Assembly: GCA_963763775.1 (NCBI GenBank)
Contig: CAVXPZ010000002.1
Location: forward strand, 1 to 64,000
Source of the DNA: an uncultured Chloroflexia bacterium
GTDB taxonomy: Bacteria; Chloroflexota; Limnocylindria; Limnocylindrales; CSP1-4
Length of the DNA stretch: 64,000 nucleotides
Direction of reading: 5' to 3'
Of this stretch, positions 1-5,687 are shown piece by piece; position 1 is the stretch's first letter; each line of letters begins with the position of its first letter. The notes under the pieces are model-generated. The model did not search any database. It saw nothing but the letters and a program-made list of their open reading frames with translations, and was not told where the DNA came from. Position numbers and translations under genes: made by a program.

Positions 1-83
1 CTCTCATGATTGCTGACAAGGGCCTTTGACATAGGATTTGGCCCGCCTCTTCCGATCGACGGCAGAGGCATTTGTACGACGGA

Positions 84-252
84 TATGCGGTGCAGGAGGC
101 GGGACTTAAACGTCGGTCAACAATCTCTCATCCGCGGGTCGAGCCGCATGACCTTGCTTCGTTTGGGGCTGCCTCAGTCTAGGTGGCGAGAGTCAAAGGC
201 TCATAGTGGAGACGAGGGCTCCCCGGCATTGTCCCACCCCCAGCGCCGCATA
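84..252 (-). ncRNA. Putative bridge RNA / seekRNA of the IS110 element
   Basis: 22-bp closing stem 84-105/231-252 (18 Watson-Crick, 2 G-U on the minus strand, 2 mismatches). Internal stem 165-179/211-224 and hairpin 134-147. Loop segments match the IS ends and the CTAG target. Confidence 0.7.
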
Positions 253-308
253 CCGCGCCGAGGCTGATCTTGTGTTTGTTATCTCCTCTTCTGGCTGTCA
301 AGTAAGGG

Positions 309-1411
309 TCATGCCGTTTTTGGCGCGGATTGAACCGTCCAGGCGATCGACCAGATGAAACCCACCATCTCGCGTGCGATGGCGACATTGACGACGTTGG
401 CGGTCTTGCCACGCGCGCTCAGCCGACGATATCGAGTGCAGAGCCGAAGTTGCGCTCTCCAGGCGATGTCGCGAACGACTTTTGGCAGAGCCTCGATCCG
501 ATCGACCTTATGACGACCGATGCGCGCCTTCATTCGGTAAGCCCAGGCGCCTTCGACCAGCGCGCGTCGGGCATGGGTGTTGCCGGTCTTGGTGATGCCG
601 CCGCGTCGGATGGTCTCGCCACTCGATCGCTCGCCCGGGATCAGGCCGAAATAGGCCATGAGCTGGCGCGGGTTTGCGAAGCGCGTGAAGTCGCCCACCT
701 CCGCGACCAGCACCACGGCTGTGATCAGGCGATCCCCGCATCGCCTGCAAGGCGTCGACAACCGGGCGCAGATTCCATTCGGGGAGGAGGCTATCTGCTC
801 CTCGACTCGCTGCAGACGCCGCTCCGCATCCATGACGGCGTCGACATAGTCCTGAAAGGCGATCTGCTGAGCAGGATGTTCGAAGGCCAAAGTCGATAGC
901 CATCGCCGGTAAGCCATTCGCCATGCCGTCCCACGCCCATGCTTCCGACCGTGACGCGGGAGAAACCTTGAAGATGTTGCCGCGCGCGCGTCACGATGTG
1001 CCGGACGACGCTGCGCAGCCGGATTAGGTCGCGCATGGCTTCATGATCGGCGTCGGCACCCAGACGGCGTCAACTCTCCGGCCCGATGAAGACGGGCGAG
1101 CATGGTGGCGTCGCGACGATTTGTCTTCACCCGGTCGCCCGCCTTCGTTGGGATCAACGATGGCGCCACCACGTCACATCGATGACCAAAGCTTGTGAGT
1201 TGGCGATGAATGCCGTAGCCGCACGGTCCCGCCTCGTAGCAAAACGCCAATGGCTTGCCGGGCCGCCGAAGACGGTCGCAGAGCTTGCGGATGGCGCCAG
1301 GATCATTGGCAATCTCGCCAAGGTGATTCGCCGCCGGACCGCCCGCTTCCGCCACCGCGATCGGATTCGCTCTTTGTGAATATCCAAGCCAACAAATCGG
1401 GTATTTTTCAT
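309..1411 (-). pseudogene. IS110-family transposase (DEDD RuvC-like + Tnp20 domain), split over several frames
   Basis: Pieces: FVGLDIHK, CYEAGPCGY, KTNRRDA, AEVGDFTRFANPRQLMAYFGLIPGERSSG, GGITKTGN, VAIAREM. About five frameshifts, either real decay or sequencing error. Confidence 0.9.
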
Positions 1412-1517
1412 TCGGCCCGTCTCCTATGCATGAGGCTCTGTGCCGGCCAGCCGGCTTAACCCTCGTACCGGTGCATATCGGATGACGGGCCACTTCAGGC
1501 CCAGCAATCATAAGGTC

Positions 1518-3416
1518 TAGCCTGTGGCGGGCGAGATGCTCCGGAGATGGCTGTCTTGGCGCGAAAACGAGACGATTTGGGTCAACCCCCCGTTTGACCG
1601 CTTCGGCGCGAAGGTTGTCCTTGACGAGAACATTCGTCTCCAAGAGCCACAGCACGCTTCCCGGGATAGCGGTCAAGAGGCGCATCCAGATGCCGAAAAA
1701 CTCCGGCGTGATCTTGTAGGTATTGTTGAATGAGCAAAATACGAATCCCTGATCTGGAAGACCACATCCGGCGCGCGTCGGCGCGATGTTGGAAATCAGC
1801 CTCTTGCTGTCGTTTGGCTGGTAGCAATGCGGTAGATGGACGATATTTTCAGTGTAAAAAGGCTGCTGACTCATCGGTAACACAAAGGGATCAGCGATCA
1901 CATAGTCGATAAAACTGGCACCCATGGTTCCTGGAAAGCCAACGAAGCTCACCTGTAAGGGAGCTGGTCTTTGAGCGGCAATCCCAGTTCGCGCTCCTTT
2001 CGTGTATCCCTTCAATTCAACGAGAATATCAATTCGATCAGTTTTTATGCGTTTTGCCGCTTCAGTGTCCGTCATCTCCCGAAGATCAACGAATTCATGG
2101 AAGGCGCGCCGCAGCCGCACGCTGAGTTCACTGTGGTCCTCAGGACCGTGCGAATAAGCAAAAATCTCGAAACTAGAGTTGTCGTGGCACTCAAAGAACT
2201 CGGCCATGAGAAGCGCGGTCGCGTGGCGACAGAAATCGGCCGATAAATATCCTATTCTCAGCTTCCTGGAGCCCGCATATTCTTCCCGACTGTGTTCGAA
2301 TGGGTGTGGCTGCAAAAAACTTGCCGCGTAGGATTGCGCGACGCGAAGTTGTTCTTCCGCGCTCAGTTCCATGCTAAGGAGCGGGAAGGGATGAATGAGT
2401 TCGTGTGTCGAGGCAATCAGAGTACGAAGTTCGCGTTCATCGGCCTCAATCCCCTCCCAATCGCATGCTAGCCGCCGTTTGTGACAAAGCCAAACGCGAA
2501 TGGCTAGTAGCTTCGGGTTGATCTCGACGGCGGTACGGTAGGCCTCTATCGCCTCCTTAAGCCTACCCAGACTTTCGAGTGCTGCGCCCATATTGGCGTG
2601 TGCTTCGGCAAGATCCGGACGTAAAATAAGGGCCTGGTGGTAAGCCTCGACCGCATCTTCAAAGGCTTCCTGGCCTTGCAAGACATTCCCTAGATTGGTG
2701 TAAGCTTCGGCGAAATCTGGACGCAGTGCCAGCGCCCTCCGGTAGGCGTTAGCGGAGTCGTCCGGCTTGCCTAACTCCTTCAAAATGTTGCCGAGACAGA
2801 AATAGGATTCGGCCGAATCTGGACGCTGTTTGATGATGTGCTCGCACACCACAATCGCCTCCCCACACCGGCTAAGCTTGCGGAGCACATTAGCGCAATT
2901 CGTATGGGCTTCGACAAAACCGGGATTGAGCGACGCGGCTTGCCGATAGGCGGCGAGCGCGTCGTCGAGACGGCCCTGGTCCTCTAACGCATTGCCCAAA
3001 TTGGAATAGGCTTGTGCAAATTCCGGGGCGATGGCGATAGCTTTCCGGGTCGCGGAAAGCGCAGCTTCAGTATTGCCGAGCGCGCGATGAACCGCACCGA
3101 GATTGGAGAGGGCTTCAACATAATCTGGTTTGGCGGCAAGTGCCTGCTCGATCCACCTCGCGGCGGCTGTATGCTCTCCTCGCTGGTGAGCGATCAGACC
3201 CAGATGATGAAGGCCAACAAAGTGTTCAGGTATGCGGGTTAAGATCTCGGCATAGGCCGCCTCCGCCTCTGCGTAGCGGCCGGCGCGAAAATATTCGAGG
3301 GCGTTCGCAAGGAGTTCCCCCTCTGCAAATGACTGCGCCAGATGTCCGGGCGCTATTTCTCCCTTTTCCCGCCTGTGCTCGCTAATCCCTACTGTCATCG
3401 CCGTCCTTGCTTCCAT
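1518..3416 (-). pseudogene. TPR-repeat O-GlcNAc transferase (GT41/SPINDLY family), C-terminus interrupted by IS110
   Basis: Many TPR repeats, then LRIGYLSADFCRHAT, DILVELKGYT and FCSFNNTYKITP. The expected 'HLARHRLADLFLDT' stops after HRL at the IS junction. Confidence 0.88.
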
Positions 3417-3902: not shown

Positions 3903-5466
3903 ATGTTCGAAGGGCTTTCGGAAAAGCTCTCTGGAATTCTGGATAAACTGACGCGTCGTGGCGCGCTCTCGGAAGAAGACGTGAGTCTCGCACTGCGCGA
4001 GGTTCGCCGCGCCCTTCTTGAAGCCGACGTTGCGCTCGACGTCGTTCGCTCCTTTGTGGACAAGGTGCGTGCTCGCGCTGTCGGCGCCAATGTCGTCAAA
4101 TCAGTGACGCCCGGCCAGATGGTCGTGAAGATCGTCAATGACGTCTTGATCGAAACGCTCGGCGCCGATGCCGACCCTATCAATCTCGATGCAGCTCCGC
4201 CTGTCGCTATCATGATGGTCGGCCTACAAGGCGCGGGCAAAACGACCACTGCTGCCAAAATAGCCAAGCGGCTTTCCGAAAAAATGAAGCGCAAGGTCTT
4301 GATGGCCTCGCTCGATGTGAAACGGCCGGCCGCGCAAGAGCAGCTCGCCGTGCTTGGCCGCCAGGTCGATATCGATACTTTGCCGATCATCGTCGGCCAG
4401 ACTCCTGTCCAGATTGCCAAACGCGCGGAACAGGCGGCGCGTTTGCAAGGCTATGATGTCGTTATCCTCGACACGGCCGGGCGCACCCATATCGACGAAG
4501 CTCTGATGGCCGAGATGGCTGAGATCAAGGCGGCATCGCAACCGCATGAGATCTTGCTTGTCGCTGACAGCCTCACCGGTCAGGACGCGGTTCATCTCGC
4601 GAAAAGCTTCGATGATCGTGTCGGCATCACCGGCATCGTGCTGACGCGGATCGATGGCGACGGACGTGGCGGCGCTGCGCTGTCCATGCGTGCTGTCACC
4701 GGCAAACCGATCAAGCTGCTTGGGACCGGCGAGAAGATGGACGCGCTGGAGGATTTCCATCCATCCCGTATCGCTAATCGCATTCTCGGCATGGGCGACA
4801 TCGTTTCGCTCGTCGAAAAAGCAGCCGAGTCAATCGATGCTGAGCAGGCACGCCGCGCCACTGAGCGGATGCGCAAGGGAAAGTTCGATCTTGAGGACCT
4901 CTTGGATCAGCTCGCCCAAGTCGAGAAGATCGGCGGCCTCGGAGGCATCATGGGGATGCTGCCGGGGGTCGCCAAGATGAAGAGTCAGCTTGCCTCCGCC
5001 AACATCGATGATCGTATCATCAAACGCCAGCGCGCGATGATTTACTCGATGACGCGCGAGGAGCGCCGCAATCCCGACCTGCTCAAGGCGTCGCGCAAAA
5101 GGCGCATCGCGGCCGGGTCCGGGGTCAAGGTCGAGGATATTAACAAGCTCTTGAAACAGCACCGTCAAATGGCCGATATGATGAAGGCGATGGGGGGCAC
5201 CAAGCGAGGCGGCGCGATGGGGAAAATGGCCTCGATGCTCGGACTTCCGGCAGGTATGCCGCAACCGACGCCGGAGCAGATAGCCGCCATGCAAAAACAA
5301 ATGGGGCAAAAGCACGTTGCCTCGGCGCCGCAATCCGGATCGCATGGGCATGCTCCGAAAAATCTGGCGATCGGAACCGGGGAAACACCAAAATTACCTG
5401 GTCTCGGCGGCAGGCGGCGGCGGCGGCCTTTTGAGCGGGCTCAGTCCCTTCGGAAAGAAGAAATGA
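3903..5466 (+). CDS. ffh: Signal recognition particle protein Ffh (probable frameshift near 5410; natural end PFGKKK*)
   Basis: GLQGAGKTT, DTAGR, DGDGRGGAALS and the M-domain SRKRRIAAGSG. An alternative frame gives GGGGLLSGLSPFGKKK-TGA at 5464-5466. Confidence 0.97.
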
Positions 5467-5687
5467 TGGCCGGGCCGACTTTCTCTTCATAGCGTATCAA
5501 CCAACTAGGCGCACACGAGCTCGATCGCATCGGGCAGAGGCTCGATGACGTCATCATGCGGCTAGACCCTGTCGAGCGAACCGTCGCCAACCATTCCGAG
5601 GAACTTGCCGGGATCAATAGCAAGCTCGATTGCCTTGACGCGCAAACCACTCGGATCGAAAAACGGCTCGACATTGTCGAGGGTTAA
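5463..5687 (+). pseudogene. Small coiled-coil hypothetical ORF with an internal TAG
   Basis: ATG overlaps the ffh TGA. Reads MMAGPTFSS*RINQLGAHELDRIGQRLDDVIMRLDPVER...IEKRLDIVEG-TAA, with a heptad pattern. Confidence 0.4.

Follow-up and report, generated by a model that had tools for sequence, protein, structure and literature searches.

A probable guide RNA in the 3' non-coding end of an IS1111-group insertion sequence at the start of a contig from an uncultured Chloroflexia bacterium

The window, by which the whole analysed stretch of 64,000 nucleotides is meant, opens with an insertion sequence of the IS1111 group that lies at 1..1518 on the minus strand (own orientation 1518 to 1) and is delimited by homology to 78 loci, from the CTAG at 1520 to base 1. 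Following the minus strand from 1520 to 1, the order is CTAG, ACCTT, ATGATTGCTG, a leader (109 nt, 1520 to 1412), a broken transposase gene (309..1411, minus) and 308 nt of non-coding DNA (308 to 1); as in the IS1111 group, the longer non-coding stretch is the one downstream of the transposase gene, 308 nt vs 109 nt upstream. A putative guide RNA of 169 nt, of the kind termed long seekRNA or bridge RNA, can be placed within this downstream stretch at 84..252 on the minus strand (252 to 84). The gene interrupted by the element (1521..3416, minus) encodes a TPR and glycosyltransferase family 41 protein (PF13844 at 9.7e-65 plus TPR families) and is cut after ...PEHLARHRL, where the intact homologue in another genome (L162) reads on as ...HRLADLFLDT; a search of the same assembly for the C-terminal remainder of the gene found none.

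Relatives were gathered by scanning genome contigs with a 202-aa C-terminal fragment of the transposase, which matched 608 stretches, 414 of them encoding a relative; the best 80 were kept and represent 78 loci, mostly of Hyphomicrobiales such as Mesorhizobium and Microvirga, together with soil MAGs. From these best 80 of 414, the window region and 56 distinct relatives were aligned into an RNA alignment of 57 rows with 75% mean column identity. A second set of 80 metagenome loci was found via a 58%-identical relative, and nhmmer recovered the guide RNA in 76 of them. Among three relatives (L034, L021 and L045) the RNA-bearing non-coding region was seen to be interrupted by about 0.8 kb, at 3249-4085 in L034, or truncated. 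An ISfinder name may already exist for the element, or it may figure in the lists of the two 2024 papers on these systems that are cited below.

Base 1 of the window is also the first base of its contig (C2, in an assembly of 4 contigs and 3.3 Mb), so that the initial annotation's placement of an IS end at 1-7 was a guess; it proved right, since 53 of 55 right ends recovered from relatives (from the best 80 of 414) stop at ...ATCATGAGAG, the same point as the window start, and are followed by unrelated DNA, mostly starting TGG or TAC. The two remaining right ends comprise one that reads ...GAGGG and one that is cut off by its contig. At the other end, the left junction CTAG (1517..1520, minus) is made up of target CT (1520-1519) and core AG (1518-1517), the second copy of the core lying at 2-1 at the right end. 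Insertion in the lineage is both orientation- and sequence-specific: all 48 unique copies have [C/T]TAG at the left junction, with unrelated DNA upstream, and the right flank (TGG, TAC, TGC, TGT or CAG) follows the guide. As AG represents the letters common to both junctions (CT-AG-ACC on the left, GAG-AG-TGG on the right), it is probably AG, and not the CTAG proposed at first, that forms the likely crossover core shared by donor and target. The target is more than CTAG, namely YTAG with 3-6 nt to its right (TGGA... for the window guide). The core of IS621 is CT, compared to the AG inferred here.

The repeat search also identified subterminal inverted repeats on the minus strand, with ATGATTGCTG on the left (1502..1511), overlapping the -10-like TATGAT (1512 to 1507), and CAGCAATCAT on the right (6..15), followed by GAGAG to base 1. 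The full arms (3-15 and 1502-1514) measure 13 nt with 92% complementarity, in the IS1111 range of 7-17 bp, and stand back from the ends by 5 nt on the left and by 3 nt plus the core on the right. Two other matches, a 10-nt one between 504-513 and 1508-1517 and one between 96-105 and 1226-1235, were set aside as chance-level for 1.5 kb. Right junctions in L053 and L027, and also in L040 and L063, contain an extra AG before the expected flank (GAGAG-AG-TGG or GAGAG-AG-TAC), which could be a duplicated core or slippage.

The transposase gene is of the IS110-family DEDD type and is present only as ORF pieces; PF02371 is found on 309-917 and is the only domain detected, because the N-terminal half is frameshifted, and the fragment reaches 117 bits against NF033542 (cut-off 140). 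In the relative L005, which shares 91.4% DNA identity with the window element, an open frame of 371 aa contains PF01548 as well as PF02371 and scores 268.9 bits against the same model, 'IS110 family RNA-guided transposase' (cut-off 140). The translation of 309-917 includes GLIPGERSSG, which fits the C-terminal GL-P----S(t)G motif described for IS1111 transposases (PMC11187229).

The RNA is closed by P1 (252-231 with 105-84), a stem the initial annotation had drawn at 84-105/231-252, and in which 22 positions pair, 4 of them non-Watson-Crick on the DNA. Among 57 relatives, compensatory changes are seen in 16 of 19 P1 pairs. In addition to P1, the consensus fold of the 57 sequences (RNAalifold) contains P2a (GGGG 224-221 with CCCC 168-165), P2b (CCUC 217-214 with GAGG 175-172), P3 (UGAGC/GCUCG; in the window UGAGC 203-199 with (U)CUCG 191-187) and the P4 hairpin (134..147; GCGG 147-144 with CCGC 137-134), the last being invariant in 56-57 of 57 sequences and lengthened by RNAalifold through a pairing of UCAU with AUGA. 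P2a, P2b and P3 make up the target-binding arm (165..224, minus), whose internal loop lies between P2b and P3. The hairpin read earlier as GCGG 134-137 and CCGC 144-147 is thus P4, with its letters correct, and the second stem proposed at 165-179/211-224 corresponds to P2a and P2b; the initial annotation had overlooked the hairpin P3 and, within the guide, CCAC. The consensus structure is paired in 98.5% of cells vs 38.7-53.6% with slid partners, 127 cells are changed on both sides vs 29 in shuffles, and the covariation score is matched by none of 500 shuffles. The P2-P4 helices are invariant across the 57 sequences, and covariation therefore neither supports nor contradicts the inner helices; in a distant clade, P3 gains a longer apical helix. 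Folding the single sequence results in z = -2.72 (3 of 200 shuffles as good), with the outer stem kept and the inner helices absent. Scanning 1-3000 against Rfam 15 at E <= 1 gave no relevant family, and a CRISPR-DR53 match at 358-394 (minus), inside the transposase gene, was dismissed as chance (22.4 bits vs a gathering score of 45, E = 0.52).

Both strands of the internal loop match the insertion site. The 5' strand, GUCUCCACUA (204..213, minus, 213 to 204), is the complement of the top strand across T-AG and the predicted right flank TGGAGAC, with CCACUA (209 to 204) pairing with TAG and the right flank; the 3' strand, CCACCUAGACU (176..186, minus, 186 to 176), contains CUAG (182-179) in the same sense as the left junction CTAG and hence pairs with the bottom strand. 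The top-strand match comes first and the two matches overlap at TAG. A target-binding loop had been proposed from CTAG at 179-182, matching the CTAG at 1517-1520 (letters and positions are correct), and from a minus-strand CTA at 204-206, and its covariation with the insertion sites could be followed in relatives. Of 65 elements that have the RNA, a right end and a flank of 8 nt or more (from the best 80 of 414), 55 unique pairs remained once exact duplicates of guide plus 12-nt flank, and only these, had been removed. The first three flank bases predicted by the guide are those observed in 45 of the 55 pairs, over five guide classes (TGG 23, CAG 12, TAC 8, TGC 1, TGT 1). The natural guides that go with TGG, TAC, TGC, TGT and CAG are CCACUA, GUACUA, GCACUA, ACACUA and CUGUUA. 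The mean contiguous match between guide and flank is 3.45 nt vs 1.44 in shuffles, with 0 of 10,000 shuffles as good, and at positions 4-7 within a guide class it is 1.22 vs 1.02 (22 of 10,000 shuffles as good), shuffle counts which overstate independence because the copies are related. The 10 pairs that fail on the first 3 nt include four in which the junction is shifted or contains an extra AG; L005, L025, L052, L046 and L050 are among the ten as real mismatches or shifts, and L054 is there through an extraction error, as its right-end listing shows TGG.

For the 3' strand, 44 of 48 unique copies have the same base before TAG in the guide as at the junction, among them all three with a UUAG guide next to TTAG. 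Further left of YTAG the agreement is weak (0.60 vs 0.42, with 255 of 10,000 shuffles reaching it); in essence the left guide spans 4 nt (YUAG), and the guide for the right flank co-varies strongly. Every guide recovered in the metagenome set belongs to the CUGUUA type, and the right flanks recovered there mostly start CAG, some offset by 1-4 nt. The guide role of the target loop is thus confirmed at the level of sequence covariation, through the 5' strand and the right flank, and the presence of other guide letters beside matching flanks (TGG, TAC, TGC, TGT and CAG) is, on the same comparison, natural reprogramming. The right flank predicted from the guide of the window copy is TGGAGAC, and the homologous gene elsewhere has CTCGCGGATCTG at the corresponding position, which makes CTAG-[T/C]GGA... 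a plausible target site; as the right flank is absent at the contig start, the copy's own target is visible on one side only. Many TGG-class insertions adjoin a recurring TGGATKGAATCTAACRCTTGGTGCCC... and many CAG-class insertions adjoin CAGGCTGCTGAAAAA, so that preferred targets appear to lie in dispersed repeats. Inverted IS pairs are also seen 1-2 kb apart around another gene (L015/L016, L028/L037 and L019), with right ends inward and TAC... flanks; these are possible composite arrangements, or insertions in both arms of a palindromic repeat.

A long GC-rich stem right after a stop codon, as found here, could also serve, without any role as a guide, as a generic stabiliser in the 3' UTR of the transposase mRNA or as its terminator. 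Such an element would hardly be expected to carry loop letters that track the flanking DNA in five guide classes, nor loops that are more strictly conserved than stems, as they are in the 57-row alignment, and a search of the minus strand at the RNA 3' end for a U-tract terminator found none; this explanation is therefore regarded as highly improbable. Taken whole, the best explanation is that positions 1-1518 of the window are an IS1111-group element of the IS110 family whose 3' non-coding end encodes a guide RNA running from 252 to 84, a reading to which a probability of roughly 85% is assigned. The proposal of the initial annotation that a guide RNA of an IS110/IS1111-family recombinase is encoded in this 3' end is supported in the same way by the consensus structure and the target covariation.

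The same RNA may also read the ends of the element itself. Two segments on the minus strand flank the P4 hairpin in the multiloop: AAGGUC (150..155, 155 to 150), a putative right-donor guide, is complementary to the G+ACCTT of the left end (1517 to 1512), and AUGAGAG (125..131, 131 to 125), a putative left-donor guide, has the same sequence as the final 7 nt of the right end (7 to 1). A donor-binding loop had been proposed at first from the same letters, CTCTCAT at 125-131 being that of 1-7 and GACCTT at 150-155 the reverse complement of AAGGTC at 1512-1517; both sets of letters are correct and the segment matches stand, but the covariation anticipated between 150-155 and the left end does not appear. 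When the 169-nt RNA was shuffled 20,000 times, 44 shuffles contained both donor matches, for which at least 7 nt had to agree in sense with the final 10 nt of the right end and at least 6 nt in antisense with the beginning of the left end. In 40 close copies, AAGGUC is constant (40/40) while the left end varies (ACCTT 8, ACCCT 8, TCCCT 19, TCCAT 3, CCCCT 1, CCCT 1), and the full GACCTT complement is found in 8, a single mismatch in 8 and two or more in 24. Among metagenome relatives, GGUC is present in 64 of 68 and GGAA in 4 of 68, the latter with the left end still TAGACC. AUGAGAG is invariant in 57 of 57 aligned relatives and in 68 of 68 metagenome relatives; as neither this segment nor the right end varies, covariation is uninformative for 125-131, and its pairing is indistinguishable from a protein-binding motif. 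In a mutual-information scan between columns of the RNA and positions of the left end, the division into two clades was the dominant signal and one column was mis-parsed, and no conclusion is drawn from it.

These patterns also bring up an arrangement in which guidance by the RNA is confined to the choice of target, AAGGUC and AUGAGAG form a conserved structural or protein-binding module (an extended P4), and the protein reads the subterminal inverted repeats. It would account for the left-end variation that is uncompensated in 32 of 40 close copies, for the unchanged left end of the GGAA variants and for the absence of variation in both AUGAGAG and the right end; the predicted UCAU/AUGA pairing, which would occlude part of both donor segments, fits it as well, and in the account of IS1111 seekRNAs by Siddiquee et al. 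only target matches are given, end recognition being described as unknown (PMC11187229). A 7-nt identity to one end and a 4-6-nt complement to the other, symmetric around one hairpin and rare by chance, are more difficult to explain without a donor role, as is the sense/antisense layout, patterned like that of the target loop; according to Durrant et al., nucleotides complementary to the donor occur in multiloops of IS1111 elements, and many of these elements have their donor-binding nucleotides there (PMC11208160). The target-only arrangement is accordingly considered rather unlikely, and a donor-reading role for the two segments, suggested by their sense/antisense layout, is held to be plausible at slightly better than even odds. 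Two additional proposals were examined and rejected. Inheritance of the first base after TAG from the previous target, as in a 3-nt crossover, fits the T variants of the TGG class, but in the CAG class the letters after TAG are ACC in 15 of 16 recovered left ends, with GCC in L084, and never begin with C; extra pairing of the RNA segment GAUUGUUG with the inverted repeat was treated as chance, since the registers differ between clades.

No sigma-70-like site was found within 1-1600. Candidate parts of one are seen at the two ends: the -35-like TTGTCA (19 to 14) stands 13 nt from the right end, and TATGAT is located at 1512 to 1507. In relatives, the hexamer found at this distance of 13 nt is TTGTCA in 38, TTGAAA in 26, TTGACA in 17, TTGACT in 9, TTGACC in 6 and TTGACG in 5, and TATGAT or TATGTT follows TAG by 4 nt in 70 of 72 left ends. 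Joining of the ends with one AG would bring together TTGTCA, the 13 nt of the right end, ACCT and TATGAT, from which we infer a promoter with a 17-nt spacer; a junction promoter produced from joined ends has been described for the family (PMC11187229; PMC12288879). Contigs from RNA libraries, obtained in four runs and derived from relatives 90-99% identical, cover 1-671, 1-783 or 1-1247, starting at base 1, and thereby include 84-252 with no listed difference within 50-292; these contigs give neither strand nor ends and may derive from DNA, their uncovered parts carry no meaning, and two of the runs (X18 and X19) look like one data set.

The condition of this particular copy is a separate matter from the reading of its RNA gene. 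Compared to L005, it lacks 14 nt in 10 deletions, of which nine fall in the transposase gene and none in the last 730 nt, and the bases deleted from the transposase gene are present in all of the RNA-library contigs. At window position 191, a unique G to U change breaks a P3 pair, leaving C-U where 56 of 57 aligned sequences have C:G, and neither a second transposase nor a second RNA copy was found in the 3.3-Mb assembly, which is 87% complete. With nine deletions breaking the frame, an invariant P3 pair broken and no second copy, the window copy is probably not autonomous. In this genome, the element may be an inactive relic or an assembly-damaged copy, with an RNA gene that is readable but without effect, and all of these features, together with the lack of a promoter-like site found inside the element, speak for such a condition. 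The assembly does carry indel errors, however, and since the ffh gene on another contig (C1) is also split into three frame pieces, the transposase frameshifts may themselves be errors; further copies may be missing from an assembly of 87% completeness, and the IS is oriented as the interrupted gene, which makes read-through transcription possible. We would give even odds to the element being a relic or a damaged copy.

Base composition sets the beginning of the contig apart, with a GC content of 0.51-0.64 in the first ~7 kb vs 0.67-0.75 beyond it and 0.71 in all contigs. An intact ffh is present there (3903-5492), only 54% identical to the second, split ffh on C1 (422862-424228). This first part of the contig may result from a chimeric join or be of foreign origin, and the host of the IS may therefore not be the binned organism.

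The closest parallels to the window RNA are the seekRNAs of the IS1111 elements ISEc11, ISPa11 and ISKpn4, as described by Siddiquee et al. in 2024 (PMC11187229). In both cases the RNA is encoded after the transposase gene, in a long non-coding region, and the top-strand match is 5' of the bottom-strand match, the two overlapping at the insertion point; the long form of these seekRNAs measures 145-170 nt, comparable to the closed structure of 169 nt found here. The elements of that account likewise have subterminal inverted repeats and a promoter formed from joined ends, and close relatives here are retargeted by a change of loop letters, as is the case for ISEc11 and ISXne4 (PMC11187229). Unlike in the three characterized elements, the target deduced here from sequence consists of YTAG plus 3-6 nt on the right side only, the left being hardly read, and the window copy is broken; the 371-aa transposase of the intact relative also differs in length from the 330-350 aa quoted for IS1111 transposases (PMC11187229). 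The bridge RNA of IS621, a member of the IS110 group reported by Durrant et al. in 2024 (PMC11208160; see also PMC11208158), is similar in that one RNA has separate target and donor modules, in which internal-loop strands flanked by helices read both DNA strands around the core dinucleotide. It is different in that the IS621 RNA is found 5' of the gene in the left end and has the reversed strand order, and in that its donor module is a simple internal loop, whereas the candidate donor segments here flank a hairpin in a multiloop (PMC11208160). ISPpu9 of Pseudomonas putida, another IS110-family element, recombines at an invariant AG at its ends; as described, it belongs to the IS110 group without inverted repeats, targets REP sequences and forms circles that create no stronger promoter (PMC12288879).

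A mechanism can be proposed from these features, in which the recombinase-RNA complex would pair the strands of the target loop with both strands of a YTAG-N3-6 site and strand exchange would occur at the AG core common to target and donor. AAGGUC and AUGAGAG would hold the circle junction (...ATGAG-AG-ACCTT...) in the same manner as the target loop holds its site. The circle junction is predicted to read ...ATCATGAG-AG-ACC(Y)TATGAT with a single AG, and the promoter made by end joining (TTGTCA-17 nt-TATGAT) would transcribe the transposase gene and the RNA together. An asymmetric version of this guidance can also be envisaged, in which the target is a CUAG palindrome with a programmable right guide of 3-6 nt, the right end of the donor (AUGAGAG) alone is read by RNA, and the left end is tolerated in at least five variants or recognised by the protein via the inverted repeat. 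This version is speculative and judged improbable; if true, it would represent a minimal, half-programmable form of bridge recombination, and the palindromic anchor would permit insertion in either orientation at ACTAGT-like sites.

For genome annotation, the locus is a routine and probably dead IS that interrupts a glycosyltransferase gene at a contig end. Its interest lies with the family, as IS110/IS1111 RNA-guided recombinases are under development for genome editing and RNAs of the IS1111 type are less understood than that of IS621. The lineage is common in soil Alphaproteobacteria (Mesorhizobium, Microvirga) and offers a clean comparative set of one scaffold with five target programmes, in effect five guide swaps made by nature while the scaffold stayed nearly the same. 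The very short left guide, along with donor segments that do not track the left end, could help to define the minimal length of a guide and the manner in which these recombinases recognise the ends of their elements.
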